Positions 9,271 through 64,000 of a stretch of DNA of 64,000 nt are shown here, in pieces. The notes under the pieces are model-generated. The model saw only the letters and a program-made list of their open reading frames with translations, did not search any database and had not been told where the DNA came from. This stretch comes from an uncultured Methanosarcinales archaeon (lineage in GTDB: Archaea > Nanobdellota > Nanobdellia > Woesearchaeales > SKGA01): positions 13,704-77,703 of the forward strand of contig CAYRYC010000001.1 of the NCBI GenBank assembly GCA_964428445.1, written 5' to 3'. Each line of letters opens with the position of its first letter. Within the stretch, counting starts at the first letter, position 1. The position numbers were made by a program, and so were the translations under genes.

Positions 9271-9280
9271 AAAATCACCA

Positions 9281-11863: not shown

Positions 11864-14800
11864 TTAATTTTTTTCTAAAATTCTCACAATGCCATTGTCA
11901 GCATCGACTTCAACTAAGTCTCCATCCTTAAGAACTTTTGTTGCAATCTTAGTTCCTATAATACAAGGAACGCCTAGCTCTCGAGAAACAATGGCTGCAT
12001 GACATAATAATCCGCCTTCATCAGTAATAAATGCGGCTGCACGTCGCATACCTGTAATTAATTCCGGCGTAGTCATGCTTGCAACAAGAATTTCTCCTTC
12101 TTGAAGTTCATCAGCGTCTTTTTGAGTATAAGTTTTTTTTACTCTTCCTATAACCTTACCTTTAAAGGCAATAGTCCCTTTTAGTTCATTAACATTTTCT
12201 GTAAAAGGTTCAAATTCAGTTATTCCTTCTCTTTGTATAAGTTTGTCCACTTCCTCTTTTCCAAAAACTTCTTCATATTTACCATCATCTAAAATCAATG
12301 CAAAATATTTTGCACGTTCAGTTAAATCTTCTTCAGGTAAAATCTCTGTTTCTAGCCAAGTAACAAATTCGTCTTCAAATAAATTCATAATCTTTTCTTC
12401 ATTAAAACCAAGATTTGTTAATGTTTTTCTTAAGGCCCAATTAGCACGTACTAAAGCAGATTTACTCTCATCAAACATATATGATGTTCTTCTTATAATA
12501 TCTATTAACCAATCAATATATTCATCATCATATTTTGGAACTTCATTAGTTATTGGTTTTTGTTCTTCTTTAAGTGGACGTTTAATTTCATAAATATAAT
12601 TTTCTGCTAACCATTCTTTGGCCATGTATTCTGAATGAATAAATCCAAAAGATTCAGCAAGTTTTTTTGCTTCATTTTTCATTTCTTCATCATCAATCAA
12701 TTCTTTATGATATTTTTCTTTTATCTCGTTGATAGCATGATTCTCTTTGCTAATCGTTGTTAGTTTATGAGGTATAGTAATATTTAATTTAACTTTTTCA
12801 AATTCTTTTTCACCTAAAACAAATTTTAGTTGCTCTAAAGCAATTTGAGTCAAATAATAACCAGAAAACATGAAACCAACTTCTTCCTTATACGAACCAG
12901 AAAATTTCAATAAATCATCTTTTTTAGAACTTGGAAGAAGTTCCAAATCTTTTTCAATAGTATCATCTACTTTAATTAAAATTTCATAGACATCAGAATT
13001 TTTCTTTGAAATTAATTCTTTGAAATTAGTATCAAAACAAGCTTTTGTAGATTCGAAATCAACGGAACTTTTCTCACCATAAAAAATAGCCAGATATTTA
13101 GGATAATTAAAATACAAATTGTTTATCTTCGTTCCTTCTTTCAAGATACTCATCATACTTGACCAAGTTAAAGGAGATAAATTTCTTGCTCCTAATTTCG
13201 TCCATTTGATTACAGAAGCATCATTCAATATCTTAACAATGCCATTATCAGCATCGACTTCGACCATATCGCCCGTTTTAAGAATTCTTGTAAGTCCCTT
13301 TATACCTACAATGCAAGGAATCTTTAATTCTCTTGAAGTTATAGACGCATGGCATATTGCACCACCATGTTCGGAAAGTATTGCTACAGATTTTTTCATA
13401 GCAGGGAGAAAATCAGGAGTGGTTGTTGAAGAAACAATAATTTCATCTTCTTGGAATTGTCTTACTTCATCTATATTTTCAACACAACGAACTTTACCTT
13501 TTACTTTTCCAGGATACGCTGTTTGACCTTCAAGTAAAGTTTTCCCTTCAACATTCTCTTCCTTAATTTCTATGTTGAATTTTTCTTTAACAGCTTCCAT
13601 AGAATCCTGTAATTGACCGTCAGTGTATACAAAACCTTCTAATCTTTTTCTAAGAACATCATCTGAAGGTAAAATTCCTGATTCTACTTCTTCTAAAGAA
13701 ATAACGTCAACGAATTGTTGTTTCTCAGGAAAAAGTTTTTTCAAAGTGTTTCTAATAGTTCCTGTTGTTCCTGGAGCTAGTTGTTCTGTTTGTTTTCTCA
13801 CTATAATAAGATCTTCTAAAGGTAAATTCTTTTTATCGTAATATTCAATCGCCCACCACATGCAATCCCACCAAGCCCATGCATCTCGGATGTTCTTTAT
13901 GAAATCTAAAAAATCTTCTTTGCTTAAAGCAGGTTTATTGAGAATAATATCTTCAACTTTTTTGTAATGTTTAATAGTTTCTTCTTTCATTACTTCTTTA
14001 TCGAACTTTCCTGCCTGCTCTATCTTCCAATCTATACCTTTAGGATTATAGTAATAATATAGAAGATTATTTTTTCGTTCGAAAACACAATAAGGATGAA
14101 AAGTGAATGGTTCGTTTAACCAAGGAACGTCTCGTCTTGATTCTTCCTGATTGGTTAATTCTGCAATAATTAAAGGAAAGTCATGATGCATTAGTTGAGT
14201 GTATTCTTTTTTTTTATTCTTTTTTTCAAGAATTTTTACAATTCCATTGTCAGCATCAACTTCGACGAAATCGCCATCTTTGAGAACTTTCGTTGCAATT
14301 TTAGTTCCAACAACACAAGGAATGTTGAGTTCACGAGAAACAATAGAAGCATGACAAGTTAATCCACCTTCATCTGTAACAATTGCAGATGCTTTTTTCA
14401 TTGCAGGTACAACACTTGGAGTGGTAGCTGTTGATACTAAAATATCTCCTTTATTCATTTTATGCATATCAGCAGGTTCATTTATTATTTTCACAATTCC
14501 TTTTGCAAAGCCTTTACATGCCAGAGATCCTTTGATACTGTCCACATCCTCCAGGGTTTCTTCTCTTTCAAATGTTGAAATAAAATCTTGCGCGTCTTGG
14601 CCGTGAATAACAAGAACACCACCTTCTTTTTTAGAAAGAATTACATGAAAATCATATAGACTATCCAAAAGATCGCTGTCTACAGATCCGTTTGCAAGAC
14701 CTTCTTTGAAAAGTTCAGGAGTAAGACCTCTTGCTTGATTAAAAGAAATGTTAAGACGTTTAGCAATTTCTTTAAACATCATTTGCATATGATAATAACT

Positions 14801-20960: not shown

Positions 20961-21091
20961 TGCGGGAGCGGAGATTTGAACTCCGGACTTCCACGGTGCA
21001 TCACCAATTGAATAATCATCGACAATAAATTGTCTCATCGCTCAATTGCGTTTATGAGCGTGGCGATCTAACCAGGCTGAACTACTCCCGC
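20961..21091 (-). tRNA. tRNA-Met (anticodon CAU) with ~56-nt intron adjacent to the anticodon loop
   Basis: Reverse-complement reads GCGGGAG-TA-GTTCAGCCTGGTTAGATC-G-CCACG-CTCATAA-[intron]-CGTGG-AAGTC-CGGAGTTCAAATCTCCG-CTCCCGC-A. CCA is not encoded. The exact intron junction (37/38 or 38/39) is ambiguous by eye. Confidence 0.7.
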
Positions 21092-25996: not shown

Positions 25997-27640
25997 CTAT
26001 TGCTTCTTATGAGATCTTACCTTATGTTGTATATATATTATTACTATGACTAATAAAGATATTAGTAAAAACATAAAAAACGAGAATGATGCAGCACTTT
26101 TAAAAGAAAGAACTTTAGTTTCTTCTTCAGCTGACTCAATATCTTGTTCTAAAAGAATATTTTCTCCATCGCTTGGAACAGATTTTAGTACAGGAATTGC
26201 TGCAGCGCCTTCAGGAATGTAAGGATCATCTGAAGTTCCTGCTTTTGAAAATCTCTCGATAATTTCAGCTATAATCTTTTCGTTATCTCCGCCATCAGTA
26301 GTATCTTCACAAGGAATAATTCTAAAAATAGCATCAACATCAATATATCCTGGTTTCTGAACATTTAAAGAATACAATTCTTTTGCAAGATTTATAGAAT
26401 ATAAACCCTCTTCATCAGTTAATCCCATATATGATTCAATTTCTGAAATTAATTTTATATTAGCATTTTTTATAGGATTCCCATTAGAACCATAAACAAT
26501 AACAGTTGTTGTTTTATACGGACATCCTGGTACTACACTTACAACAAATTCTTTATCGGAAGAAGATTCTTCTTCAACAATTACAAGAGGCTTAAAGAAA
26601 TTACAAACACAATCATCTTCCCACATCAAACAAGGATAATCGTTTGCATAATCATCAATACCCCAAACACTTTTAGAAGCAGAACAATTCATAGACCAAT
26701 CTGCATTTGCATAAATTTCGTGGAATTGCATATCAGCAGTAGATAAACCAAGTCCTTTTCCTGTATCATTTTGTCCTGAAGTTTCATTATCATAAAAAGA
26801 GGCAATTACCTTTGAAAAATTACCAATCAAACCACCAAGATAAGAAACACCAGAAACAAAACCAGTCGAATAAGAATTTCTTATAATATCGCCACCTTCA
26901 GAATAACCAACCAAACCACCAAGATAAGAAGTACCATTCACAGAACCAGTCGAATAAGAACTTCTAATAGAATTACCTGCAGAATAACCAACCAAACTAC
27001 CAAGATAAGAAGTACCAGTCACAGAAACATCCGAATAAGAAACAGAAATACTATTTGCACCACCTACAACATTACCCATCAAACCACCAACCAAACCACC
27101 AAGATAAGAAGTACCATTCACAGAACCAGAAGCAAAAGAAGAATAAAAAACAACACCAGAAGAATATCCAACTAAACCTCCAACATAATTATTTCCATCA
27201 AGAAGAAGAGAAGAAGAAGAACAATCATAAATATTACCACCTCTCATTCTACCAGTTATTGTACCAACATAATCATGACCTTTAATATTACTATAAATAA
27301 AATTAACATTTTTAATATCACTATTTTTAGCATTAGCAAATAAACCTACCCAAGATGTATTAGAACGATTAATAGTTAAATTAGTAATATTAAATCCAGC
27401 ACCATAAAAAGATCCAGAAAAAGGAGAACTAATATTACCAATAGGTTCAAAACCTGCGCCACTATTCCAATTAACAGTATCAGAACAGTCTATGTTGTTT
27501 GTAAGAATAAAATTTCCTCCTAAATCACCAGCTACAATTTTTTGCAAATCAGCGCAAGAAGATATGTCTAAAGCTCCTACTACTGATACTTGCGAGAATA
27601 ATAATATTAATCCTAAAAAAAGCAACAGCTTGTACTTCAT
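25997..27640 (-). CDS. secreted GLUG-motif repeat surface protein with C-terminal TM anchor
   Basis: Signal peptide MKYKLLLFLGLILLFSQVSVVGA. Eight or more tandem ~22-aa repeats of the type SYSTGSVNGTSYLGGLVGYS (GLUG-like). C-terminal hydrophobic helix FFMFLLISLLVIVIIY followed by a basic tail. Confidence 0.6.
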   Translation of the reverse strand: MKYKLLLFLGLILLFSQVSVVGALDISSCADLQKIVAGDLGGNFILTNNIDCSDTVNWNSGAGFEPIGNISSPFSGSFYGAGFNITNLTINRSNTSWVGLFANAKNSDIKNVNFIYSNIKGHDYVGTITGRMRGGNIYDCSSSSLLLDGNNYVGGLVGYSSGVVFYSSFASGSVNGTSYLGGLVGGLMGNVVGGANSISVSYSDVSVTGTSYLGSLVGYSAGNSIRSSYSTGSVNGTSYLGGLVGYSEGGDIIRNSYSTGFVSGVSYLGGLIGNFSKVIASFYDNETSGQNDTGKGLGLSTADMQFHEIYANADWSMNCSASKSVWGIDDYANDYPCLMWEDDCVCNFFKPLVIVEEESSSDKEFVVSVVPGCPYKTTTVIVYGSNGNPIKNANIKLISEIESYMGLTDEEGLYSINLAKELYSLNVQKPGYIDVDAIFRIIPCEDTTDGGDNEKIIAEIIERFSKAGTSDDPYIPEGAAAIPVLKSVPSDGENILLEQDIESAEEETKVLSFKSAASFSFFMFLLISLLVIVIIYIQHKVRSHKKQ

Positions 27641-27761
27641 GAAAGACACCTCAATTATCAAAATACTAATCAATGAAGTATTTAAAGGTTTTTATAGAAA
27701 GTAAGTAAACAGTCAGCACCGCATTGTAGTATTTTAAGATCTCATATGCCCATCCATACAA

Positions 27762-45471: not shown

Positions 45472-45583
45472 AGCCTCCGCCGAGAGTTGAACTCGGGACC
45501 TCTGCATCTTTGAAATTCGATGAATTACAAATCATTCGTACGAATATACCAATGCAACGCTATAGCCACTAAGCCACGGAGGC
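45472..45583 (-). tRNA. tRNA-Thr (anticodon GGU) with ~39-nt intron at canonical 37/38 position
   Basis: Reverse-complement reads GCCTCCG-TG-GCTTAGTGGCTATAGC-G-TTGCA-TTGGTA[intron]A-TGCAG-AGGTC-CCGAGTTCAACTCTCGG-CGGAGGC-T. Confidence 0.75.
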
Positions 45584-51705: not shown

Positions 51706-52200
51706 GTGATGAAAACAGATTATTTCAAATTGCAAGAGCAAATGTCTCGACGTTTCGGAGCGAAGCCTACGGAAGCTACAATAATTGCAGTTATCAAAAC
51801 ATCTACCGAACCGATTTCCCTGGACGAAATAGCTGAACAAACAAAATATTCACTAGCAACGGTTAGTAATGCTATTCGAAAATTCGAAATGCATGGAATT
51901 CTTTTCAGAAGTAAAAAACCAGGATCTAAAAAAGTATATGTTGAAGCAAAAAAAGATTTTATCAAATCAATGAAAGAAAATTTGAAAATGGTAACTTCAA
52001 ACATACAGCTACTTGTCGAAGCACTTCCGCTAATCATAGAAAAAACAAAACTTCGAATACAAAGTAAAGAAGGCTTAGGAAATCAAAATGATTTACAAAG
52101 AGACAAGAAAGATCTGGAAATGCAAAAAGACGAACTTCGTCAAGCAAAGATAACAAGCAAAATAATGGCTGAAACATTAAAAAAATTGGAAGAACACTAA
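51706..52200 (+). CDS. winged-helix transcriptional regulator with C-terminal coiled coil
   Basis: ISLDEIAEQTKYSLATVSNAIRKFEMHGIL HTH segment. Its stop abuts the ABC ATPase start (52200/52202). Confidence 0.4.
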   Translation: MMKTDYFKLQEQMSRRFGAKPTEATIIAVIKTSTEPISLDEIAEQTKYSLATVSNAIRKFEMHGILFRSKKPGSKKVYVEAKKDFIKSMKENLKMVTSNIQLLVEALPLIIEKTKLRIQSKEGLGNQNDLQRDKKDLEMQKDELRQAKITSKIMAETLKKLEEH

Positions 52201-52201
52201 A

Positions 52202-52942
52202 ATGGCTGAGAAAAAAATTACGAAAAAAACAACCCATAGCAAAACTGGCAAAAGTAAGAAAGATATAGTTCTTTCATTAAGAAATGTCTGGCGAACCTAT
52301 ACTATGGGGGATAATAAGATTCACGCTCTTAAAGGATTAAACCTAGATGTAAAGAAAGGAGAATTCTTAGCAATACAAGGACCTTCAGGATCAGGTAAAT
52401 CTACTGCTCTAAACATGATAGGGGTTTTAGATCTACCATCACAGGGAGATATATTTCTAGATGGACATAATATTAACAAATTTACAGAATCACAACTCGC
52501 ACAATTAAGAGGACAAAAAATAGGATTCATTTTTCAAAAATTCAATCTCATAAATACATTAACAGCAAAAGAAAACATTACATTACCATTAATTTTCCAA
52601 GGAAAAACTGAAGCAGAACGAGAGAAAAAAGCACAAGAGCTTCTTGACCTCGTTGAAATTGCTGATCGAGCAAATCACAAACCAGGAGAACTTTCAGGAG
52701 GACAGCAACAACGAGTAGCAATTGCTAGAGCACTTGCAGTTGATCCAGAAATTATTCTGGCAGACGAACCAACAGGAAACCTTGACAGTAAAAGTGGAGG
52801 AACAGTAATGGACTTCCTAAAAAAACTACACAAAGAACAAGGTAAAACAATCATCATGGTAACCCATGATTCAAATCTTACAAAATACGCCGATCGTATT
52901 GAAACACTCAAAGACGGCGAAATCCAAAAAAATCGAAAATAA
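52202..52942 (+). CDS. ABC transporter ATP-binding protein (MacB/LolD/FtsE-like)
   Basis: Walker A GPSGSGKST, signature LSGGQQQRVAIARAL, Walker B ILADEPTGNLD, H-loop VTHD. Confidence 0.85.
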   Translation: MAEKKITKKTTHSKTGKSKKDIVLSLRNVWRTYTMGDNKIHALKGLNLDVKKGEFLAIQGPSGSGKSTALNMIGVLDLPSQGDIFLDGHNINKFTESQLAQLRGQKIGFIFQKFNLINTLTAKENITLPLIFQGKTEAEREKKAQELLDLVEIADRANHKPGELSGGQQQRVAIARALAVDPEIILADEPTGNLDSKSGGTVMDFLKKLHKEQGKTIIMVTHDSNLTKYADRIETLKDGEIQKNRK

Positions 52943-52961
52943 AATTTAGATTTTTAGGGAT

Positions 52962-53015
52962 GCAAAGAAAACTAAAGTTTTCTTGCACAAAAAACAATTA
53001 TTGTTTTTTAGTGCT
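52962..53015 (+). terminator. two adjacent hairpins followed by T-tracts after ABC ATPase gene
   Basis: gcaaagaaaactaaagttttcttgc is an 11-bp inverted repeat. aaaaaacaattattgtttttt is a 10-bp inverted repeat ending in T6. AGGTGA Shine-Dalgarno site for the next gene follows. Confidence 0.4.
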
Positions 53016-53074
53016 GAAAAATATTAAAAATATTTTTCAAGCATTGTGACTAAACATCGAAAGGTGAGCAAAAA

Positions 53075-54298
53075 ATGAACAAAAAAATAATTTTAGGAAT
53101 TATGCTGCTTATTGTTATGCTAGTAGGCACAACATTAGTAAGCGCAGCAGTAGACACAGCTAACCTCGAAGCGTCACTTGTACGTTACGAGCCACTTCCT
53201 GCACAACCAGGACAATACCTTACAGTATATGTAAAAGTGGAAAATGATTATGCATATCCTGCAGAAGATGCAGCTATCAGAATCAAAGAAGAATTTCCTT
53301 TCAGTGTTGTAAACATAGATGATTTAGAACAAGACTTAGGAATCATCGAAGGACGAGATAGCCAAGTTGCGGAATTTAGACTTAAAGTTGATAGTCAAGC
53401 TGCAGTTGGAACAAATTATCTAACAGTAGAATATACTCAAGATAAATTCAAAGGGGTATGGAAAGAAGCAGAACTTAGTATTTCAATAAGACCGAACGAT
53501 GCATCTCTTTCAATTTCAAATGTGAAAACAAGTCCTGAAGAAATTACTCCAGGAAGTGAAGGAGTTCTTGAAATAACAATTAAAAACACCGCAGAAATTA
53601 CTCTAAGAGATATTGGGCTTCAAATCGGACTCGTCAGCATTGACGGAACGGATCTTCCATTCATCCCAACATCAGTTACTGAAAAAAGAGTTGGAAAAAT
53701 TAATCCTGCTGAAATTATAACATTAAGTTTTCCTCTGAAAGCATATCCAAGTGCAAGCCCTGGTTATTACAAATTACCAATGCGAACAACATTCTACGAT
53801 GAAGAAGGAACAATGACCACACAGGACGATTTTGTTGGAATTATTGTAAAAGCAGAACCCGAACTAAAGGTATATGTTGAAGACGTAGAAGCTACAAAAG
53901 GCGGAACTGGAAAAATTACTTTCAAATTTGTTAACAAAGGAATTAGTGATCTTAAATTCTTAGACATAGTAGTTCAAGAAGGAGAAGGATACAAAGTTCA
54001 CGATTCAACAGATAGATACATCGGAGATTTAGATTCTGATGATTATCGTAGCGAATATTTTAACATCGAACTACTTGATGAAGAAACTGAAGTAAATATT
54101 CTAGTTAGCTACAAAGATGAAAATAATAATATTTACGAAACAACAGAAATAGTTATGGTAAATGCTTCAAGCGGAAACGGACAAAAATCAGGACCTTCAT
54201 GGTTTACAATTTTACTTGTAATTGTTTTAGCAATTATTGGAATTAGATATTTCATAAAAAAAAGAAAAGCAAGTAAGGCTAAAAAAAATAAAAAATAA
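53075..54298 (+). CDS. exported protein with C-terminal TM anchor (extracytoplasmic component of the ABC system)
   Basis: Signal/anchor MNKKIILGIMLLIVMLVGTTLVSA. C-terminal helix WFTILLVIVLAIIGIRYF followed by KKRKASKAKKNKK. Confidence 0.5.
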   Translation: MNKKIILGIMLLIVMLVGTTLVSAAVDTANLEASLVRYEPLPAQPGQYLTVYVKVENDYAYPAEDAAIRIKEEFPFSVVNIDDLEQDLGIIEGRDSQVAEFRLKVDSQAAVGTNYLTVEYTQDKFKGVWKEAELSISIRPNDASLSISNVKTSPEEITPGSEGVLEITIKNTAEITLRDIGLQIGLVSIDGTDLPFIPTSVTEKRVGKINPAEIITLSFPLKAYPSASPGYYKLPMRTTFYDEEGTMTTQDDFVGIIVKAEPELKVYVEDVEATKGGTGKITFKFVNKGISDLKFLDIVVQEGEGYKVHDSTDRYIGDLDSDDYRSEYFNIELLDEETEVNILVSYKDENNNIYETTEIVMVNASSGNGQKSGPSWFTILLVIVLAIIGIRYFIKKRKASKAKKNKK

Positions 54299-54310
54299 GG
54301 ATATAGCCTC

Positions 54311-55519
54311 ATGAACCTTAAAGAAGCACTACGTATTGCACTTATCAACATTACTCACCGAAGAGTCCGGAGTTTGCTCACTCTCATAGGAATCTTCGCA
54401 GGTATTGCTGCAGTAGTAGCTCTCGTTAGTCTCGGACAAGGTTTACAAGGCGCTATCAATGATCAATTCTCAGACATCGGTGCGGATGTCTTTACAGTCA
54501 GCGGAGCAGGAAGTGCATTTGGACCTCCTGGAACAAATGCTGTTGGATCCATAGGTGATCATGACATAACAGTTATAGAACGCGTCAATGATGTCGACTT
54601 TGCCTTTGGTCGTTATATCAGACCATTTCAAATGGAATTTAATGGAAAAGAATCTGGAGGCTATGTTGCATCCTTGCCTGAAGGAGCATCCTTCGAACTC
54701 ATGCTTCAAGCACTCAATGTTGAAGTTGTAGAGGGACGAATGATTACTCCAGATGATAAACGGAACATAGTTGTTGGTGGTTCCGTAGACGTTGATAATG
54801 ACAAATTAGAAGTTGGACAAAAAGTTACAATAAAAGATGAAGTGTTTAGAATTGTTGGCGTGTTGAAAAAAACAGGAAATCCAATGGTTGATGCGGCGAC
54901 ACTCATGACAAAAGACAGCACCGAAGAACTCTTTGAAGTGGAAGATGATTATAGTATAATTGTTGTCGCGGTTGATGAAGGAGCGGATCTTTTAGAAGTA
55001 AAAGATGCTGTTGAACGACAAATGCGACGAGATCGAGATGTAAAAGAAGGCGAAGAAGATTTTCAAATATCAACACCTCAAGAAACATTAGAATCACTTA
55101 ACTCAATTCTTACAACGGTTCAAGTATTGATTGTAGGAATAGCTGCAATCAGTTTATTAGTTGGAGCAATAGGAATTGCAAACACAATGTATACTGCAGT
55201 ATTAGAACGACGGCGAGAAATTGGAATTATGAAATCCGTCGGAGCGAAAAACAGCGATGTACTAACAATATTCCTTATCGAATCAGGAATGCTCGGTCTT
55301 GTAGGTGGAATCATAGGACTTATTGTAGGAGTTCTTATCAGTAAAGGAATAGAAGCAGGAGCATATTATTATTTTGGCGAAAGCCTCATCAAAGCAACAA
55401 TACCATTTTGGTTAATTGCAGGATCACTTGCATTCGCATTCATTTTAGGAACTGTGTCAGGAACACTACCTGCAAAACAAGCATCACAGCTTAAACCTGT
55501 GGACGCATTGCGCAAATAG
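54311..55519 (+). CDS. FtsX/MacB-type ABC transporter permease
   Basis: N-terminal TM helix, large extracytoplasmic domain, three C-terminal TM helices. Conserved motif NTMYTAVLERRREIGIMKSVGA. Confidence 0.75.
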   Translation: MNLKEALRIALINITHRRVRSLLTLIGIFAGIAAVVALVSLGQGLQGAINDQFSDIGADVFTVSGAGSAFGPPGTNAVGSIGDHDITVIERVNDVDFAFGRYIRPFQMEFNGKESGGYVASLPEGASFELMLQALNVEVVEGRMITPDDKRNIVVGGSVDVDNDKLEVGQKVTIKDEVFRIVGVLKKTGNPMVDAATLMTKDSTEELFEVEDDYSIIVVAVDEGADLLEVKDAVERQMRRDRDVKEGEEDFQISTPQETLESLNSILTTVQVLIVGIAAISLLVGAIGIANTMYTAVLERRREIGIMKSVGAKNSDVLTIFLIESGMLGLVGGIIGLIVGVLISKGIEAGAYYYFGESLIKATIPFWLIAGSLAFAFILGTVSGTLPAKQASQLKPVDALRK

Positions 55520-55525
55520 CGCAAT

Positions 55526-55614
55526 GTTCGATGCGTAAGTATCGTAACTTTGAGAAAATGAATAATACAATTATTCATTTTAGAAAAGTTCGACGCACAA
55601 GTGTCGTAACTTTG
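55526..55614 (+). repeat. two copies of ~27-nt motif GTTCGAYGCRYAAGTRTCGTAACTTTG flanking a 17-nt palindrome
   Basis: R1 at 55526-55552, R2 at 55588-55614; palindrome gaataatacaattattc at 55560-55576. Related copies follow the second permease gene. Confidence 0.55.
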
Positions 55615-55674
55615 CGTAAATAACGCAATATTGAGAATGACAATAAACAAAACTTTGAAAAAATAAAAAGAAAA

Positions 55675-56898
55675 ATGATACTAGAATATTTCAAAATAGC
55701 ATTGCGGTCACTTACGCGACGAAAAACACGTAGTTGGTTAACTATGATTGGAATATTCATAGGTATTGCAGCGGTTGTTTCTCTTATTAGTCTTGGTCAA
55801 GGAATGCAAGATTCCATCCAAGAATCTTTTGAAAGTATTGGAACTGATAAATTATTCATCAGTCCCGGAAGTTCTCTTTTCTCCATAGGAGAAAACATAG
55901 GAACGGAACCCATAACAGAGGATGATGTTCGTTTCTTAATAGGGCAGGGCGGTGTGAAATATGTTACCTATTACGCCATGACCAGCGCAAAAGTAGAATA
56001 TCAAGATGTAGTCAGGTATTATCTAATTGCAGGAATTCCTACAAACAACAAAGACATAGAACTTATGGAAGCACTTTTGGGTGTTGGAATGGCTAAAGGA
56101 AGAATGCTTTCTGCAGGAGATAGAACTGCAACAGCTATTGCATTCTACCATAATGAAAGAGGTTTATATGATGGGGAAAATATGAATGTAAATAGTAAAT
56201 TTCTCATTAATGATCAAAAATTCTATGTTGCAGGAGTATTCGAACCAATAGGAAGTTCTCAGGATGATAAAATGATTTATCTCCCAATAGATTCATTCAG
56301 AGATGTTACAGGAATAGAAGAACGAGTAGATTATGTTATCGTTCAGGTTGCAGAAGGAAAAGATCCAGCAATTATTGGTGATGAATTGAAACGATCCCTG
56401 GCTCGATTCCGAGGAGTTAAAGAAGGAGATGAAGATTTCACCATACAAACACCTGAAGAATTACTAGCATCATTCCAAACAATCCTAGACATCGTCAAAG
56501 CAGTGTTAATTGGTATTGCATTAATTAGTTTATTTGTTGGAAGTGTTGGAATCATGAACACAATGTATACTTCCGTTCTTGAAAGAAATAAAGAAATTGG
56601 AATTATGAAAGCAATTGGTGCAAGAAATAAAGATATCTTCTGGCTATTTTTTATTGAATCAGGAATCCTAGGACTTGTTGGAGGTGCCATAGGAATTATT
56701 ATAGGAACAGGATTGGCAAGCGCGGTAGAATTAGTTAGCACACAAGCACTCGGTAAATCATTCCTACAAGCAAATTATTCTTGGGAACTATTTGTAGGAG
56801 CATTAGTATTCTCATTCATTGTCGGAGCTTTAGCAGGAACACTACCTGCAATCCAAGCAAGTAAAGAAAAACCCGCAGATACTTTACGCGATGAATAA
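55675..56898 (+). CDS. FtsX/MacB-type ABC transporter permease (second paralogue)
   Basis: Same architecture as the first permease; motif NTMYTSVLERNKEIGIMKAIGA. Protein identity to the first copy is roughly 35-40%. Confidence 0.75.
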   Translation: MILEYFKIALRSLTRRKTRSWLTMIGIFIGIAAVVSLISLGQGMQDSIQESFESIGTDKLFISPGSSLFSIGENIGTEPITEDDVRFLIGQGGVKYVTYYAMTSAKVEYQDVVRYYLIAGIPTNNKDIELMEALLGVGMAKGRMLSAGDRTATAIAFYHNERGLYDGENMNVNSKFLINDQKFYVAGVFEPIGSSQDDKMIYLPIDSFRDVTGIEERVDYVIVQVAEGKDPAIIGDELKRSLARFRGVKEGDEDFTIQTPEELLASFQTILDIVKAVLIGIALISLFVGSVGIMNTMYTSVLERNKEIGIMKAIGARNKDIFWLFFIESGILGLVGGAIGIIIGTGLASAVELVSTQALGKSFLQANYSWELFVGALVFSFIVGALAGTLPAIQASKEKPADTLRDE

Positions 56899-57005: not shown

Positions 57006-60000
57006 CTATTTCTCTTTAGTAAATGTAGAACTATAATCTAATTCAGCAAATGCTGCTTGAAGGAAAGGATGTAGTTTTTCTTTCTCTTCTTCAGATAAAG
57101 TTTCATATATTTTAACAGCTTCTGAATATTTCTTTTTAGAAATAAGTAACTCGTCAAATTCTAAAGCAAGTGTTGCATTGTAAAGAAGTTCTTGAACTCT
57201 CTTGAAAGGCTCTTCAGATAAAGACATCTCGTTAATTGATCGAGCAACATCTTCAGTTTCAGTTTTAGAAATACTTAATACTTGTTCTCTAAATAATTCT
57301 AGGCTAAGAAGTAATTCTTCTCTAGATAATAATTCTTCTTTACTTAGTAATTTATGTATTTCTTCTTGATCCTTAAGAGATTTTTTTACTTTATTAGTGG
57401 TGGAAAGTTTTTCAATGGATCGATTATTTTCTTTCATACGACTATTTGTAAAAATGAATCCAAAGAAATTAGTAAATAATAAACTTAATTTATGTTGAGG
57501 AACATCTACCGATTTTGTTGAAACAGATTCTTTTTCCAGACCAGATAAATTTCTTAATAATTGTTTTTTCTGTGCTGCGGTTAATAATACTTGTTTAGCC
57601 TTATGACCTAAAGCAATAATTCCATATTTACTTGCTATTTTTATAGCTCCTAATAATATTAATGCCAATAGACCAAATCCTATTATACGAGCTGTTTTGT
57701 TATCAAATAATTCTCCTGCTTTACATGCTTCGCAAGAACCGCCACAATCAACACCTTTTTCATTTTGATTTTTTATACCATCAAAACAAGTTCCGCAGGG
57801 TTCACAAGGACCGCCACAATCAACACCTAATTCTCCGTAATTTTGAATACCATCAAAACAATTTTTACAAGGAACACAGAAAGGACCGCCACAATCAATT
57901 TCTTCTTCGAAATTATTAAAGATTCCATCAAAACAAGTTTTACACACATCACAGAAAAGTCCGCCACAATCAATATCTTCTTCTCCTTGATTTTTTATAC
58001 CATCATTACAACTAGCACAAGGTTTACATTCTCCACCACAATCAACGCCTTCTTCGAATTCATCCTGTATACCATTTTCACAGAAAATTAATTGTTCACA
58101 GCTTTCTTCAAAATATAATTCATTATTAGTGTAACAACTATTGTTATCAACGCAGGTTCTATTTTTTGTTCCATTCTCATTGCAAGGAGACCAGTCAGGG
58201 CAGAACCAATTAGGAGTACAAAATCCTCCGCCTCCACCGCCTCCACCAGGAGGAGTTGTAGTTGTTCCAATTTTCAAAGTATTGTTTGTTGTAGCCCAAG
58301 AGGATGCAAAATAAACATCATAGGCAAGACAGTTCCATTCATATGTCGCCAAAGGTAAACCTGAAACAATCCAAGAATTACTATCTGAATTTCCGGAAGA
58401 TGAAATAGAATTTTCATAAAAAATTACTCCGGTATTAGCATTCCAAACGCTTAAACTAAAATTGTATAAGTCTGTATTTGAAGTAACATTACATGTAAAT
58501 GTCTGTGTTGTGGAAGTTGATTGTGTATTATCAGTAGGAGCAACAAGAGTTACTAAAGGAGCATCTACAAAATCACAGGCTTCATTAAGATTAGCAGGAG
58601 CATATGTACAATTCCATAGTTCTCCATTAGTTCCAACTCCTGAACTAGAATAATTATTACAAATAAAGAACGATTCTTTTGTTGAATTAGCAGGATCTAA
58701 ATCTAAATCATATATTCCAGTCCATAAACCATAAAGATTATCATCCGATGGAGTTGTTATGGATCCTGAACAGGTCACAAGATCTCCTGAATAGCTTGCA
58801 GGAATTGTTCCTGCATTAACAACGGATCCATTTGTTGCTTGATAATATACATTGCATTTTGAGATGCTTTCTGAATCGTCACTGTAGAACTGCGAACTCA
58901 CACTTATTGTTATTAATGAACTATTATAGAAATTATTTGTTAATAAAAATGATCCTGATTTATACGCAGGAATTATATTAATTGTTTTTGATTCGGAAAC
59001 GGCTGTTGCATAATTACCCGTATCATCCCGTGCCCAGAATGAAAAATTATATGTTCCGCTTTCAACCATATTTCCTATTGTGAATTTACAATCGGAAGCA
59101 TCATCTCCTGAAACAAGATAGGAGTTCGGACCTGAAGCATTGTAGAAACAACGATCAATGGTTCCATCTTGATAATCTCCATTCTCAGTATCATTTGCAG
59201 AAACCCCAAACCACACACCAGAACCATAGCTAATATTTACTGAGCTAGCAGAAGGTTCGCTAATTGCTAAATTAACCGTTGGAGAAATATTATCAAGTAT
59301 TCTAAAATCAATGCTATGTCCTGTTGAAGGAACAGCAATGGTAAAATATAATTCAAAAGCATCATTAAAAATAGTGTCGTTGGTAGGAATGTTTACTGTC
59401 ATAGATATTGAACTAGCACCGGAACCGTTTACTGCATCCTGAAGAACTATTTGTCCTTTTGTATTAGAACCATCTTCAGAATATGATTGAGTTTCAAAAT
59501 TAGCCTGTGTTGATCCTGTTGTAATAAAATTTTCTCCTTGTAAACCAAGATGAACGGGAAGAGCAACACCTAAAAGATTACCAAGCCATAAATAAGCAGT
59601 AGAAGAATAGGAACCATATGTAAATTGTATTGTGAAATTATTTCCTAATCTTACTCTATTATCCCATAGAGCATAAAGTCCGTCAAATGTTTGCGAACTT
59701 GTTGAAGGAGGAACATATGTTCCAGTCATAAGAGTATTGACAATACAATATGCTTGAGCCGCGCAATCGCTATCAACGCAATCAATGGAACCATCGCCAT
59801 CATTATCAATGTCATCATTACAAACTTCTGCACTGCAAGAAGCAAATCCTAAACAATCACTATCCTGGCAATCAACTTGACCATCGCCATCATTATCATA
59901 GTTATCAGAACAAAGATAAGCATTATTTTCTATAGCAAGATAAAACTGATGATCATATGATGAAAGTTGATATAAACAATCAGCATCGTTCTCATCGATT

Positions 60001-63000
60001 TGAGAATCATAATCATTATCAGAACCATCTGCACATGCATCCCATTCGGTTAATTCTATATTAGGACAAGCATAACAAATACCATTTGAAAAAAGACCGA
60101 ATGAACCAAACGCTTGATAACAATCAGGATCAAAACAATCTTTAGGCCCATCCAAATCATCATCTATATTGTTATCGCAATAGAAATCAATTCTTGGAAG
60201 AAAAAAGAAAAATGCATCTGAAGCATTAAACTCGTAGTCTAAACAAACATCATACACATTTTCAGGATTAGCTACACCAATACAATTAGGATCGGAACAA
60301 TCTATTCCTCCACTTGCATTTGCACTATATCCTGCACCATTCCAATAGTATGCATCCATATCATTATCTATATTATCAAAACACCAGGACGCGTTAAGTG
60401 CTTCTGATGAAGGAACTTCAGCTTTATCCGCACAATCATAGTCATCGAAATCAGCATCATTGCTGAAAGTTTGATTGAATAATAATGCATATAGAGTTTG
60501 ATTATTTGTCCAACCAGGATTCGGCATTGAACCTGCTTCAGAATCATAATCATTATCAAACTCATCATAGCAATTTAGTTCTCTTTCTAATTCGCAAACT
60601 TTTCCATTGCTTAATGTTTCGTTACCACAATCTTCATCGGGATGATTATCAGAACCATAGGAAAAATATCCTCCCCAATGACAATCCATTCCAGCTCCAC
60701 TTGTTAGGTTGAAAGAATAACCGTTTGCTCCACCAGTGGTTGTATACCAAAGGTCCCAATCGTTATCAACACCATCATTACATTCAGAACCGAGTTCATT
60801 ATCATCTAATGTTGCTCGACAATGGGAAGAACAATCATATTCGGCATCATTATAGGAACCCGTTAGACTTCCTTCACAATCTAGTTCTTGCCAATAGTCA
60901 TTATCAAAACCATCGGTACAATTTAATTCAATTTTATATTGACATACTTGTGTTGCATTACTTGGATTAATAATTACATCACAATCTTTATCTCTACAAT
61001 CAATATCAGTTAATCCTGTATTAGCATGACCCCACATATCATCTTCTAGAGCCCAATCATTATTGTATTGATCGAAACATGCAGCCGCATCAATATACTC
61101 TCCACCATAACCACAACGACCTGTTGTGTCACCGTTCGTATAATAATCGTCGTGGGCAGGAGGACCTGGTTTAGTATTACAATCAATATCATAACAATCA
61201 TAGGATTGAAAATCAAAACAATATTGTTCGTTTCCACTACAATCTAAATAATCAAAGTCTCCGTTCTTTGTATCATTACAAGAATCCCAAGTCATACTTG
61301 GATCGTTTAGGCGAATTTCCCATTCGTTATTGTTATCGCTGCTCCATCGTGGACGACTATCACCAATCGGGATATATGTTAGATCGTCGAAATAAATTGT
61401 TATGTTAACAGTATCTTCGTAAGCAACTAAACCTTCTAAATAATTTAATGTAAGTTCAATAATATATCCTTCATCCATGCTTACGTTTGATTCATTGAAA
61501 TAAATAAGTAAAGTTGTATCTATGTTTGCAATCTCCGTTCCACCTGCTTGATATGATCGAAGAATAACTTGGTTCGTATGCGTTTCTGATTCGTTGAGAG
61601 TATCCTGATCTACAGGAATATTATTTTTATCTAAGAAATAAACAAATTCACCGTTGCTTGATCCAGTACCTGGGAAAATTTTTGTAACATTTTCTATTTG
61701 AGGAAAACCTCTAACAAAAATAGTTGCTGTTTTAGAAACAGACCAATGAGATAATCTCATTTTGAATGTACCATTAGGCATTGTGTGTTGCGTGTATTCA
61801 ATACTTGTTTCTCCAAAACTAGAACTGAACGATGTTGTGTTTATTTCCATGTCTCCTATAGGAATATCATTTGCCAATGTTCCGTGAGAACCGGAAGGAG
61901 AATAGTATAAACTAGTGTTGGCAAAAGATTGTTTTGGTTTATTACTATATGTAACTCCCCAACATTCAGGATCTGCAGTATCAATTAATGAATCTGGTTC
62001 TGTTGGATTATCAATTTCATCATGACAAAATAATTCTACATTTGTTCCGCCGTATTTTGAAACTGCGAACGCAACGTCTCCGTCTTGATCTGCTTTTATG
62101 GTGTTTTGTGCAAACATGTCTTCTGCGGATTTTGCATTTACTGAATTTGCAATATCACCAAGTGTCCATGTTATTGGACGTACATGGATATTCCAATTTA
62201 CAGAATCATTAACAACAATTGGTGAAAGCGAAGCATTGTAATGACCACACTCAAGAACTCTCCAAGGAATCCAGTTATCGGAAGTTCCATTTCCCGTTGA
62301 ATTTATGCTGTCAGAAGAAACTAGTACATAGGTGACACTGACGTTTCCATCTGTTATGTTAGACGTTAAGGTAGTGTTAGCAAAGATTTGGCGACAGCCA
62401 GCTAAACCGTCATCGTAACAATTGGACTGGTTAATATAACAACCCACAATGTCACCCAATGTACCAGTAATATGATCGAAAGGTATTGTAAAATTATAGA
62501 GATAGTTTCCTGCCGCAGGAAGCGGACTTGGTTCAAGATAATAGAATCCTTCAGGATATGTTGGATAAATGATATTATTTGCTTGAACTGTAAAACTTAC
62601 ATTGACTTCGTCAACGCTGTTAGAACAATTTCGTTCATCGATTACTGTAAAAGTTAGATTACTTATTCCGACGGTGGAAGAATTAGGAGTAACAGTTATT
62701 GTTCCGTTAGAATATAGATTGAATGTTAAATTTCCGCTTGTTGTATTTTGATAATAATATAATATGTCATCATTAAAATCAGTGGCGTCAAGTTGACAGG
62801 AATAATATGCTCCTTCGAAAAGATCAGTAGAACAATTAAATAAGATTTCAGGCGGATTATTAATGCAGGTTTGAACAGAACCATCAATGGCATCGCCAGT
62901 TACCCAGCTCGACATATCCATATCATGGAAGGCAAGATATGTTGGAACAAACAATGTTAACACTAGAGCTATAAATAGCACTACGCCTAACACCCTTTGC

Positions 63001-63065
63001 GTGACCACCTTGTCACAATAGCAGATTCTGGCCTTTAAAAGTGTTTCTTTATAAAGGAAATGCAT
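57006..63065 (-). CDS. giant (2019 aa) Cys/Asp-rich cell-surface protein with N-terminal signal/anchor, C-terminal TM helix and cytoplasmic tail
   Basis: N-terminus VVLFIALVLTLFVPTYLA. At least 10 TSP3-like repeats (CSDNYDNDGDGQVDCQDSDC, CNDDIDNDGDGSIDCVDSDC, CTDGFDNDYWQELDC, and others). Gly8 linker. Five tandem ~24-aa Cys repeats of the form C-x-[DN]-G-I-x-N-x-x-E-x-x-[IV]-D-C-G-G-x-C-x-x-C. TM helix IIGFGLLALILLGAIKIA, then a ~280-aa coiled-coil tail. Confidence 0.7.
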   Translation of the reverse strand: MHFLYKETLLKARICYCDKVVTQRVLGVVLFIALVLTLFVPTYLAFHDMDMSSWVTGDAIDGSVQTCINNPPEILFNCSTDLFEGAYYSCQLDATDFNDDILYYYQNTTSGNLTFNLYSNGTITVTPNSSTVGISNLTFTVIDERNCSNSVDEVNVSFTVQANNIIYPTYPEGFYYLEPSPLPAAGNYLYNFTIPFDHITGTLGDIVGCYINQSNCYDDGLAGCRQIFANTTLTSNITDGNVSVTYVLVSSDSINSTGNGTSDNWIPWRVLECGHYNASLSPIVVNDSVNWNIHVRPITWTLGDIANSVNAKSAEDMFAQNTIKADQDGDVAFAVSKYGGTNVELFCHDEIDNPTEPDSLIDTADPECWGVTYSNKPKQSFANTSLYYSPSGSHGTLANDIPIGDMEINTTSFSSSFGETSIEYTQHTMPNGTFKMRLSHWSVSKTATIFVRGFPQIENVTKIFPGTGSSNGEFVYFLDKNNIPVDQDTLNESETHTNQVILRSYQAGGTEIANIDTTLLIYFNESNVSMDEGYIIELTLNYLEGLVAYEDTVNITIYFDDLTYIPIGDSRPRWSSDNNNEWEIRLNDPSMTWDSCNDTKNGDFDYLDCSGNEQYCFDFQSYDCYDIDCNTKPGPPAHDDYYTNGDTTGRCGYGGEYIDAAACFDQYNNDWALEDDMWGHANTGLTDIDCRDKDCDVIINPSNATQVCQYKIELNCTDGFDNDYWQELDCEGSLTGSYNDAEYDCSSHCRATLDDNELGSECNDGVDNDWDLWYTTTGGANGYSFNLTSGAGMDCHWGGYFSYGSDNHPDEDCGNETLSNGKVCELERELNCYDEFDNDYDSEAGSMPNPGWTNNQTLYALLFNQTFSNDADFDDYDCADKAEVPSSEALNASWCFDNIDNDMDAYYWNGAGYSANASGGIDCSDPNCIGVANPENVYDVCLDYEFNASDAFFFFLPRIDFYCDNNIDDDLDGPKDCFDPDCYQAFGSFGLFSNGICYACPNIELTEWDACADGSDNDYDSQIDENDADCLYQLSSYDHQFYLAIENNAYLCSDNYDNDGDGQVDCQDSDCLGFASCSAEVCNDDIDNDGDGSIDCVDSDCAAQAYCIVNTLMTGTYVPPSTSSQTFDGLYALWDNRVRLGNNFTIQFTYGSYSSTAYLWLGNLLGVALPVHLGLQGENFITTGSTQANFETQSYSEDGSNTKGQIVLQDAVNGSGASSISMTVNIPTNDTIFNDAFELYFTIAVPSTGHSIDFRILDNISPTVNLAISEPSASSVNISYGSGVWFGVSANDTENGDYQDGTIDRCFYNASGPNSYLVSGDDASDCKFTIGNMVESGTYNFSFWARDDTGNYATAVSESKTINIIPAYKSGSFLLTNNFYNSSLITISVSSQFYSDDSESISKCNVYYQATNGSVVNAGTIPASYSGDLVTCSGSITTPSDDNLYGLWTGIYDLDLDPANSTKESFFICNNYSSSGVGTNGELWNCTYAPANLNEACDFVDAPLVTLVAPTDNTQSTSTTQTFTCNVTSNTDLYNFSLSVWNANTGVIFYENSISSSGNSDSNSWIVSGLPLATYEWNCLAYDVYFASSWATTNNTLKIGTTTTPPGGGGGGGGFCTPNWFCPDWSPCNENGTKNRTCVDNNSCYTNNELYFEESCEQLIFCENGIQDEFEEGVDCGGECKPCASCNDGIKNQGEEDIDCGGLFCDVCKTCFDGIFNNFEEEIDCGGPFCVPCKNCFDGIQNYGELGVDCGGPCEPCGTCFDGIKNQNEKGVDCGGSCEACKAGELFDNKTARIIGFGLLALILLGAIKIASKYGIIALGHKAKQVLLTAAQKKQLLRNLSGLEKESVSTKSVDVPQHKLSLLFTNFFGFIFTNSRMKENNRSIEKLSTTNKVKKSLKDQEEIHKLLSKEELLSREELLLSLELFREQVLSISKTETEDVARSINEMSLSEEPFKRVQELLYNATLALEFDELLISKKKYSEAVKIYETLSEEEKEKLHPFLQAAFAELDYSSTFTKEK
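57700..58110 (-). repeat. in-frame tandem nucleotide repeats (~72-75 bp period, 5 copies) encoding the C-terminal Cys-rich modules of the giant protein
   Basis: Recurring ccgccacaatcaa[c/t] segments at ~57770, 57880, 57960 and 58030 on the plus strand. Confidence 0.5.
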
Positions 63066-63128
63066 TTGTTGTCACTTTTTAGGAATAACAATAGAAATAT
63101 TTATAAAGAGTGAATTGTGACAAATAAT

Positions 63129-64000
63129 ATGAAACTTCCAAAAGTATCTTCACTTCTCAAAATACTAGGCCTTTTTGGAGCAGGATTGCTATTAAGTGCA
63201 AACAGCACAGCACAATCCACAACAATCCTTCACGGGACCGTAAAATTAGCCTATGATAGCACCACGGTCGTTGAAGACGCTGAAATAAACATTTGGAAAG
63301 CAGGAAATCCTACAGACACATTACACTTTAATTCTGACAATCTGGGAGAATACATTACATATGAATTTAATATTAATGAAGACACAATAGTAAACATAGA
63401 CGATTACTCAGCACCTAAATTAGAAGATATTCTTATCACAAACAATCCTGGACAAGGACATCACTTTATTGTTCCAAGCGATGAAAAACCAAAAGATCTA
63501 GCTAAGATCTATAACGTACAAGGAAAAGAAGTCGCAAGCATCGAAGCTCTTATGAAAAACGGAAATATTGTAAGTTCATGGGATGGAAAAACTGCTGATG
63601 GAATAGCAAAAAACGGACTCTACATATATTCATTAGAATTAGAAAATGGAGAACGAGTTTCAGAAAAATTTATACAAACTACAAACGGAAGTCAAAGCGC
63701 ATATCTTTCTAAATCAATCGAGCCTAAAAACGAACTAAACACTAAAGCTCTTAAAGATATTATGATCGATGGAACATACGTCTTTGAAGTAAAATCAAAC
63801 TCAGGAATAACAAGCCATGATTTCCCAACACAACTAGACACATTCTTAATTTCAGGAAGTTTAGGAACAAATTTTGTAGAACACTATGTACAATCAGTTC
63901 CACAACACAAAACATTCAATTTTATAGTTCGAGAACCATACTATTCAGATGGTGTAGAAAATGTTAAAGTTCTAGCTACAGATTCCTTAACAGGAACAGT
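63129..64000 (+). CDS. secreted protein (3'-truncated by window end) with CarboxypepD_reg-like and FlgD-Ig/T9SS-CTD-like beta-sandwich modules
   Basis: Not in the ORF track, so translated by hand: MKLPKVSSLLKILGLFGAGLLLSANSTAQS (signal peptide). Then TILHGTVKLAYDSTTVVEDAEINIWKAG, and IYNVQGKEVASIE...GLYIYSLELENGERVSEKFI. No stop before position 64000. Divergent from the giant gene, sharing a 63-bp promoter region. Confidence 0.5.
   Translation, partial: MKLPKVSSLLKILGLFGAGLLLSANSTAQSTTILHGTVKLAYDSTTVVEDAEINIWKAGNPTDTLHFNSDNLGEYITYEFNINEDTIVNIDDYSAPKLEDILITNNPGQGHHFIVPSDEKPKDLAKIYNVQGKEVASIEALMKNGNIVSSWDGKTADGIAKNGLYIYSLELENGERVSEKFIQTTNGSQSAYLSKSIEPKNELNTKALKDIMIDGTYVFEVKSNSGITSHDFPTQLDTFLISGSLGTNFVEHYVQSVPQHKTFNFIVREPYYSDGVENVKVLATDSLTGT

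Follow-up and report, generated by a model that had tools for sequence, protein, structure and literature searches.

The 64,000-nucleotide stretch of archaeal contig CAYRYC010000001.1 analysed here (the window) carries a giant gene on its minus strand, at 57006-63065. The sequence-only reading of this DNA had placed an open reading frame (ORF) of 2019 amino acids (aa) there, and its coordinates, length, strand and ATG start were confirmed. The protein and its family are annotated as hypothetical only. By its sequence it is a type-I membrane-anchored, Cys/Asp-rich and heavily glycosylatable surface protein of a DPANN (Woesearchaeota-type) archaeon, in which a conserved core with acidic repeats is joined to a Cys-rich stalk, one transmembrane helix and a cytoplasmic domain. 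The features of the gene are as follows, from its promoter side to its stop codon.

57006..63065, minus strand: whole ORF, 2019 aa, with an ATG start and the stop codon at 57006-57008.
63098..63107, minus strand: archaeal TATA-like box TTTATAAATA, read from the sequence about 35-40 nucleotides (nt) 5' of the ATG; putative promoter element of the giant gene.
62928..63065, minus strand: N-terminal signal/anchor region, aa 1-46, with a hydrophobic core at aa 28-46 (hydropathy; N-termini of homologues).
62616..62819, minus strand: distal Ig-like domain, aa 83-150, weakly Big_9/cadherin-like, in the family-variable N-terminal part.
58566..62573, minus strand: conserved family core, aa 165-1500 (~1,335 aa), about 50% identical over the homologues, with a constant ~9 acidic repeats.
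61962..62027, minus strand: degenerate acidic repeat 0, aa 347-368; the second Cys pair is absent here and kept in most homologues.
59745..61280, minus strand: acidic repeat region of NF033662 type, aa 596-1107, of Ca2+-binding type by sequence; ten repeats, most with 15-40-aa inserts.
59745..59912, minus strand: two compact canonical repeats, aa 1052-1107, with an in-register match to the teneurin C-rich domain.
59196..59744, minus strand: 'core B' beta-rich domain, aa 1108-1290, which with the preceding repeats makes up a ~600-aa block common to at least 50 further giant proteins.
58251..59195, minus strand: Ig/PKD-like beta domains, aa 1291-1605 (weak PKD_2, weak 9kvu), conserved to about aa 1500 and variable thereafter.
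58224..58247, minus strand: Gly8 hinge, aa 1607-1614, read from the sequence.
58098..58220, minus strand: W/Cys knot, aa 1616-1656, C-x3-W-x-C-x2-W-x2-C-x3-G-x3-R-x-C-x-D-x3-C, between the Gly hinge and the DCGG modules.
57717..58082, minus strand: five tandem DCGG modules, aa 1662-1783, C-x-D-G-I-x-N-Q-G-E-x-G-[IV]-D-C-G-G-x(1-2)-C-x-x-C; Tandem Repeats Finder (TRF) period 75 at 57734-58005.
57615..57686, minus strand: transmembrane helix, about aa 1794-1817, followed by Lys-rich juxtamembrane residues (positive-inside; hydropathy and composition).
57009..57614, minus strand: cytoplasmic domain, aa 1818-2019 (202 aa), Cys-free, rich in Leu, Glu, Lys and Ser, conserved in the homologue P0002.

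The identical 2019-aa protein (P0276) is on record at NCBI/ENA, on contigs of up to 216.8 kb. It was found that the 6,060-nt gene and the 200 nt upstream of it show zero differences from four other assemblies, one of which came from a different assembler (Logan). Because the same sequence recurs in all four, the gene is real and not the assembly chimera that had been named in advance as a possible flaw. The start codon is ambiguous between the ATG at 63065, a GTG at codon 20 and a GTG at codon 25 (62993-63065, minus strand). Public gene calls include both the 2019-aa version (ATG at 63065) and a 1995-aa version (GTG at codon 25), and the GTG at codon 20 (63008) gives an N-terminus, MVTQRVLG..., that parallels the start of P0002, MSTQRTIA....

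Ser, Asp and Asn each account for about 9% of the whole protein, which holds 86 Cys. The ectodomain (~1,750 aa) contains 4.8% Cys and 10.2% Asp, compared with 0.7% and 5.7% in the other ORFs of the window, and 1.8% Lys compared with 9.3%; its acidic residues number 264 and its basic ones 54. The description of the ectodomain as rich in N-glycosylation sites holds, with 55 N-x-S/T sequons where shuffled sequences gave 28.2 ± 4.6 (z = 5.9). All 84 ectodomain Cys lie between the two hydrophobic segments, and the last 202 residues have none. These two segments, the Lys-rich flank and the distribution of Cys together point to a type-I topology with an ectodomain, one transmembrane helix and a cytoplasmic tail. 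The N-terminal signal or anchor (hydrophobic aa 28-46), the single transmembrane helix (about aa 1794-1817), the Gly8 hinge at aa 1607-1614 and the five tandem Cys modules at aa 1662-1783, all proposed in the sequence-only reading, were borne out.

Pfam and NCBIfam scans were run with permissive thresholds on the whole protein (E ≤ 1) and on eight segments (E ≤ 10). They returned only NF033662, an acidic double-disulfide repeat of NCBIfam, and weak Ig-like matches; neither database matched the DCGG modules, the knot, the tail, core A or core B. The Big_9 match reached 26.0 bits (cut-off 23.6) when aa 47-165 were scanned alone and 20.1 bits, below the cut-off, in the whole-protein scan. The other Ig-type matches, Cadherin_5 and PKD_2 in Pfam and the bacterial Ig domain 9kvu in a profile search against the PDB, were below cut-off as well. 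PDB sequence searches with the whole protein, the stalk, the tail and three profiles (of the family, of 84 modules and of 18 knots) gave the teneurin C-rich domain as the only significant match. End-to-end homology to a characterised surface-layer (S-layer) or adhesin family, a finding that had been named as speaking against a novel architecture, was absent from Pfam, NCBIfam and the PDB.

The acidic repeats are the part of the protein that can be tied to a known family. NF033662 was matched in five stretches, the best at aa 1047-1077, with 66.0 bits where the curated cut-off is 41. The strict motif C-x-D-x-x-D-N-D-x-D occurs six times and its loose form nine times, where 3000 shuffles led to expectations of 0.0007 and 0.12, respectively. 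Two further degenerate copies start at aa 347 and 596 and bring the total to 10-11. The claim of at least ten copies is therefore only loosely true: it stands if the degenerate copies are counted and fails on the strict (six) or loose (nine) count. Only three to five of the repeats are compact, and the others are split by conserved inserts of 15-40 aa. Repeats 7, 9 and 10 share the four-Cys spacing C-x13-C-x4-C-x5-C, with disulfides predicted from the sequence, and four Cys per repeat fits the name 'double-disulfide'.

Residues 1080-1116 can be aligned in register with the C-rich domain of teneurin-4 in its crystal structure 7plp (E 8.6e-6), and cryo-EM chains of teneurin-4 also match. With the family profile as query, 7plp was matched at E 1.6e-6 and teneurin-2 at E 9.4e-4, the latter on the preceding repeat. 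In the teneurin-4 domain, three Ca2+ were found experimentally to be bound via eight acidic residues and one Asn; sites I and II have thrombospondin (TSP) type-3 coordination, and site III resembles the class A modules of the low-density lipoprotein receptor (PMC9058538). The same domain has six Cys, paired 1-3, 2-5 and 4-6, and as a whole is like no other known fold (PMC9058538). Repeat 10 keeps seven of the eight acidic ligand positions and the Asn in register with teneurin-4. The archaeal repeat has four of the six teneurin Cys, the equivalents of C858 and C869 being absent. Taken together, the acidic repeats are assigned by sequence to the NF033662 type, with the teneurin C-rich domain as their nearest solved relative, and they would be expected to bind Ca2+.

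The repeats had been described as TSP3-like. This is fair as an analogy of motif and mechanism, since the teneurin domain that the repeats match coordinates two of its three Ca2+ in the TSP type-3 manner, and the compact repeats carry D-N-D-G-D-G-x-x-D, a Ca2+ motif of the D-x-D-x-D-G-x-x-D type. As a family assignment it does not hold: Pfam TSP_3 gave zero matches in the whole protein at E ≤ 1 and in aa 590-1112 alone at E ≤ 10, and the family is NF033662.

Nine homologues of 48-55% identity have in common with this protein the region from about aa 165 to 1500, at about 50% identity and with a constant number of ~9 acidic repeats. The first ~160 residues and everything beyond about aa 1500, the membrane-proximal stalk included, are variable. 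The acidic repeats are part of a fixed core and do not form a variable array. An exhaustive profile search of 1.84 billion cluster representatives found the whole core in about 13 clusters, among them proteins of 3.4, 4.4 and 7.3 thousand residues. At least 50 further clusters contain the second half only, a contiguous ~600 aa (profile positions ~515-1103; about aa 690-1295 here) that spans acidic repeats and core B, and the canonical repeats alone are common to 6058 proteins. Only the narrow family has the N-terminal half of the core (aa 165-590), which there carries the invariant runs DNWIPW, W-T-x-G-D-I-A-N and Y-S-P-S-G-S-H-G-T-L-A. Among 185,579 GTDB species genomes the family occurs at three loci.

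The relatives have N-terminal signal peptides, and many end with a transmembrane helix and a Lys/Arg-rich tail. Their recognisable accessory domains are Cadherin_5, Big_9, PKD and Big_13, all above cut-off, and also BiPBP_C; no enzyme domain was recognisable among them. In four of the largest relatives, P0132 (7334 aa), P0136 (4362 aa), L010 (>5875 aa, with 324 sequons) and L012 (>5175 aa), a ~1,100-aa core lies deep inside the protein, up to 5,400 aa from the N-terminus. In DPANN giant genes the core acts as a transferable cassette. All taxon-labelled relatives come from metagenome-assembled genomes (MAGs) of Candidatus Woesearchaeota or Aenigmatarchaeota, which makes the attribution of the window to a DPANN-type archaeon reasonable, as do the long, presumably intron-containing tRNA genes in the window.

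An AlphaFold2 (AF2) model of the core, built from a seven-sequence alignment, had a mean predicted local distance difference test (pLDDT) score of 36.9. Two beta-sandwich-like subdomains at about aa 191-295 and 409-557 reached pLDDT 50-77, and the strands of core B were modelled with low confidence. Foldseek searches of the PDB with the two subdomains gave the Ig-like domains of ACE19 first (E 1.7e-4, target TM-score (TMt) 0.54), followed by Cna, SdrG, ClfA and FedF. The subdomains are treated here only as predicted beta-sandwich-rich parts, as is typical for surface proteins.

The stalk between the core and the membrane is built from two small Cys-rich elements. The W/Cys knot (~40 aa) recurs near the C-terminus of many giant relatives and was the only part of the stalk that AF2 modelled confidently, as a beta-hairpin with pLDDT 78-91. 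It was considered as a thrombospondin type-1 repeat and rejected, as 18 knots gave no Pfam TSP_1 match and no PDB sequence match. Foldseek placed BAI1 TSR3 and pleiotrophin at E of about 1, and nothing was significant. The sequence-only reading had mentioned neither the knot nor the Ig-like domain at aa 83-150.

The DCGG modules are each 24-25 aa long in this protein, and a tandem array of them occurred in none of 3000 shuffles. Near-identical DNA repeats of 72-75 bp had been proposed to encode them, with a tendency to expand and contract. Neither proposal held. The DNA units are 60-76% identical in pairwise comparison, their longest exact match is 19 nt, and TRF reported 73% matches over 3.7 copies; the copy number did not change among the five gene copies available (the window and the four other assemblies). 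Across the family the module number varies: five here, three to four in P0002, two in three members and none in the rest. The module had also been called unassignable to a known family, which is right in that Pfam, NCBIfam and the PDB lack it (no PDB sequence match even with the 84-module profile at E ≤ 10). It is not rare, as at least 157 proteins carry it: one search returned 157 from Woesearchaeota, Nanoarchaeota, Altiarchaeota and Bacteroidota. In these other proteins the tandem modules stand directly after a lipoprotein-type signal peptide or directly before a membrane anchor, and in one they follow a Gly-rich linker, as in the giant protein. That the modules adjoin an anchor or signal peptide in 157 extracellular proteins points to spacer-like behaviour.

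The 333 instances of the module all share C1, E10, C15, G16 and the final two Cys; a single one lacks D14, 328 have G17, and conservation is 94% for D3 and likewise for N7. Such a pattern is the signature of a small disulfide-braced metal-binding loop, and the near-invariant D3, N7, E10 and D14 suggest a further metal site in each module. A likeness to the Ca2+ site of ADAM disintegrins (C-G-N-G-x-x-E-x-G-E-E-C-D-C-G) found no support, with no Pfam or PDB match at E ≤ 10. AF2 modelled the modules at pLDDT below 60, and Foldseek found no significant match for the stalk model. Separately, a 313-aa protein of an uncultured archaeon (P0012) combines five DCGG modules with a weak C-terminal glutaredoxin-like match (YruB family, E 0.015), which hints at a link of the module to extracellular thiol-disulfide chemistry. 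The DCGG module (22-25 aa) and the W/Cys knot are recurrent extracellular building blocks that have no representation in Pfam, NCBIfam or the PDB.

The cytoplasmic tail had been described as a coiled coil of about 280 aa. It is 202 aa long, and its hydrophobic periodicity has a Fourier power of 0.03 at period 3.5, no higher than at other periods. The term 'coiled coil' is unsupported because this heptad periodicity is missing; the tail is probably helical, judging by its Leu/Glu/Lys-rich composition. The tail is a genuine domain. Over 213 aa it shows 36% identity with its counterpart in P0002 (E 2e-31), and the last ~70 residues are best conserved. No family in Pfam or NCBIfam and no PDB entry matched it. 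Most other members of the family have short Lys/Arg-rich tails, and P0007 has a charged tail of ~460 aa.

The reading favoured here, with about an even chance of being right, is that of a Ca2+-stiffened type-I surface adhesin or glycoprotein of a DPANN (Woesearchaeota-type) archaeon. Each compact loop would bind up to three Ca2+, as the teneurin-4 domain does, and the core would become a rigid platform, braced jointly by calcium and disulfides. The Ig-like domains, the Gly8 hinge, the W/Cys knot and the five DCGG modules would hold this platform off the membrane, leaving the variable N-terminal Ig/cadherin-like tip to bind a partner. On this view the protein would be a Ca2+-dependent adhesin that attaches its cell to a host, to another cell or to a substrate, the host being one plausible target, and the cytoplasmic domain would connect it to an intracellular partner. 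The modular Ig-like surface topology argues for such an adhesin, as does the fact that the accessory domains of the relatives are confined to Ig-like, cadherin, PKD and BiPBP_C types. In several genomes, the neighbours are giant secreted proteins and small pilin-like membrane proteins.

Several points weigh against the adhesin. The adhesive role, the host and the binding of Ca2+ are drawn from sequence and analogy rather than from direct evidence. The adhesin-like fold matches are weak and generic because the AF2 model of the core is poor (mean pLDDT 36.9). BLAST showed no gene neighbour to be conserved across the loci of the family, and the downstream neighbour here is an unrelated MacB/FtsX ABC transporter operon. 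Residues 165-590, which lack a recognisable fold or family and yet contain invariant motifs (YSPSGSHGTLA), could hide an activity. Finally, conservation peaks in the middle of the molecule and not at its tip, so that a structural role in the envelope would fit too.

Such a structural role is the main rival, although an unlikely one. The protein would be an S-layer or envelope scaffold, by analogy with SlaB-like or transmembrane-anchored euryarchaeal S-layer proteins: the Ca2+-binding core would sit in a lattice, the transmembrane helix and stalk would anchor it, and the variable N-terminal parts would face outward. Typical S-layer proteins of archaea carry N-glycans, are rich in beta-sandwiches and often have a membrane anchor. 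No S-layer protein has been determined for DPANN archaea, and the candidates lack homology to known ones (bioRxiv 10.1101/2023.10.27.564410). The conserved part is a membrane-proximal and middle platform instead of a tip, and the extreme acidity would suit cation-bridged lattice contacts. However, the family is sporadic (3 loci in 185,579 GTDB species genomes; ~13 full-core clusters in 1.84 billion representatives), and its core sits at very different positions in proteins of 1.8-7.3 thousand residues, an uncommon trait in a lattice subunit. Known S-layer proteins lack a conserved cytoplasmic domain like this one of 202 aa, and S-layer families in Pfam, NCBIfam and the PDB gave no match.

A transmembrane receptor is a slightly less probable alternative. 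Here the ectodomain would sense an external ligand or contact, which the helical domain in the cytoplasm would pass on to the cell interior, as in a teneurin-like adhesion receptor and not a passive tether. The conservation of the tail in P0002 (36%, E 2e-31), the only full-length orthologue-like homologue, speaks for it, and so do the ~460-aa charged tail of P0007 and the C-rich Ca2+ domain in common with teneurins, which are adhesion receptors. Against this, most family members have only short Lys/Arg-rich tails, and because of this the tail is not part of the conserved function. It matches no signalling domain, and by Pfam the TTR/NHL/YD-shell superfold of teneurins is absent.

A bolder proposal, to which a slim chance is given, takes the ~1,335-aa core or its ~600-aa second half as an undescribed Ca2+-dependent recognition machine for DPANN host docking. 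P0002 and the present protein would relay contact inward as counterparts of the teneurin type, and archaea and Bacteroidota would have the DCGG module in common as a new mini-domain that binds metal.

The chance is slimmer again that the protein is a surface enzyme or a factor that degrades the host envelope, with aa 165-590 as a catalytic or glycan-binding part on a Ca2+-stabilised stalk. The invariant runs in this region go beyond the usual conservation of a scaffold, the region is restricted to the narrow family, and it has been suggested that the S-layers of hosts are targets of DPANN surface hydrolases (bioRxiv 10.1101/2023.10.27.564410). Nevertheless, aa 165-590 found no sequence match in Pfam, NCBIfam or the PDB, the only semi-confident AF2 regions resemble plain beta-sandwiches, and no relative carries a recognisable enzyme domain.

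An artefact, either a chimera assembled across the repeats or a non-coding ORF, might be suspected of an ORF with internal repeats from a metagenomic assembly but is effectively refuted, as the gene and the 200 nt before it recur unchanged in four other assemblies, one of them from Logan, homologues at 48-55% identity are collinear along the ORF, and repeat units of 60-76% identity are too diverged for mis-assembly.

Two sets of genes flank the giant gene.

51706-56898, plus strand: MarR-type regulator, ABC ATPase and three tandem ~405-aa permease paralogues, downstream of and convergent with the giant gene.
63131-64000 and on beyond the window (8159-9877 of locus L003), plus strand: 572-aa secreted protein, upstream and divergent, with a sub-threshold FlgD_ig-like segment.

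Two of the permease paralogues are clear MacB_PCD plus FtsX proteins, and the first (53075-54298) lacks any Pfam match. The giant gene and the 572-aa gene are separated by a 65-nt intergenic region, which contains the TATA-like TTTATAAATA. Just past the end of the window (L003 4287-8156) lie genes for small proteins of 77, 200, 424, 149, 206 and 214 aa with N-terminal pilin-like hydrophobic segments, those of 200, 206 and 214 aa being paralogues. No meaningful Pfam family was found for them; the matches were sub-threshold ones, in the low-complexity C-terminus of the 424-aa protein. Other members of the family adjoin giant secreted proteins (>3,300 aa; >3,700 aa with LamG; 2,701 aa) and small membrane proteins. 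At the locus of P0009 in a Woesearchaeota MAG (L001 5949-10004), three tandem pairs of ~203-218-aa and 212-aa genes stand between a giant gene of >3,300 aa and that of P0009; the copies within each series are 50-94% identical and have no Pfam match in the precomputed annotation. A conserved operon made up of the small membrane or pilin-like neighbours of ~200-215 aa was considered and rejected, as these are not BLAST-homologous between loci. Judged by gene content, the common theme of the neighbourhoods is a loose 'surface-protein island' and not an operon.

Elsewhere, the window has a G+C content of ~33%. Two of its five Rfam tRNA matches, both missed by ARAGORN, are long (45472-45583, minus strand, 112 nt; 20961-21091, minus strand, 131 nt) and are presumably intron-containing archaeal tRNA genes. 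At 11864-16717 (minus strand) an ORF of 1617 aa with a TTG start resembles phosphoenolpyruvate (PEP) synthase/pyruvate-phosphate dikinase and has three matches to the PEP-utilisers mobile domain. It is about twice the usual length of the family, perhaps through duplication, fusion or insertion of an intein-like element. A second secreted protein of 558 aa, unrelated to the giant one, is encoded at 25997-27673 (minus strand) and has a signal-peptide-like N-terminus and a sub-threshold CarboxypepD_reg-like domain.

If the adhesin reading is true, the protein offers a concrete target for how Woesearchaeota-type DPANN cells attach, in which the conserved platform and the variable tip can be mapped separately. 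The teneurin C-rich domain now has clear sequence relatives, in the form of multi-copy repeats in thousands of prokaryotic surface proteins, and these are relevant to the proposal that the teneurin ectodomain has a prokaryotic origin. New family models could readily be built for the DCGG module and the W/Cys knot. DPANN biology as generally understood is unchanged by these findings. A giant modular adhesin-like glycoprotein with Ca2+-binding repeats belongs to a familiar class in a DPANN archaeon and is expected rather than surprising.

Compared with known systems, the protein stands closest to NF033662 in its repeat unit, which is likewise a four-Cys, Asp/Asn-rich unit of ~30 aa. NF033662 is a repeat model that has no functional annotation. 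The repeats here sit together with beta domains in a fixed, non-expanding core of ~1,335 aa. With the teneurin C-rich domain the repeats have in common the skeleton C-x-D-x-x-D-N-D-G-D-G-x-x-D-C-x-D-x-D-C, an extracellular location and a beta-sandwich region that comes next. However, teneurin has one copy with six Cys (three disulfides), and the archaeal protein has 10-11 copies with four Cys each. The TTR, FN-plug, NHL, YD-shell and toxin-like domains of teneurin have no Pfam match in the archaeal protein, and the PDB matches are confined to the C-rich region. Thrombospondin type-3 repeats are alike in their disulfide-stabilised D-x-D-x-D-G-x-x-D motif and in preceding a beta-rich globular domain. 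Their Cys spacing and repeat length differ from those of the archaeal repeats, and the likeness is one of motif, with no demonstrated homology.

The Ig-like domains of MSCRAMM adhesins (ACE19, Cna, SdrG and ClfA) were the best Foldseek matches of the core subdomains, at E 1.7e-4 to 3e-3. The sequence identity is ~10%, the sandwich fold is generic, the model has a mean pLDDT of 36.9, and there was no sign of the dock-lock-latch arrangement. A class nearer in biology has been described in Nanobdella aerobiophila, whose Ig-fold, sequon-rich surface proteins with signal peptides and C-terminal transmembrane segments were proposed to act at the symbiont-host interface (bioRxiv 10.1101/2023.10.27.564410). 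The present protein belongs to the same class by these described features, not by sequence comparison, and its family is set apart from them by the acidic Ca2+-loop core and by the stalk of DCGG modules and W/Cys knot.

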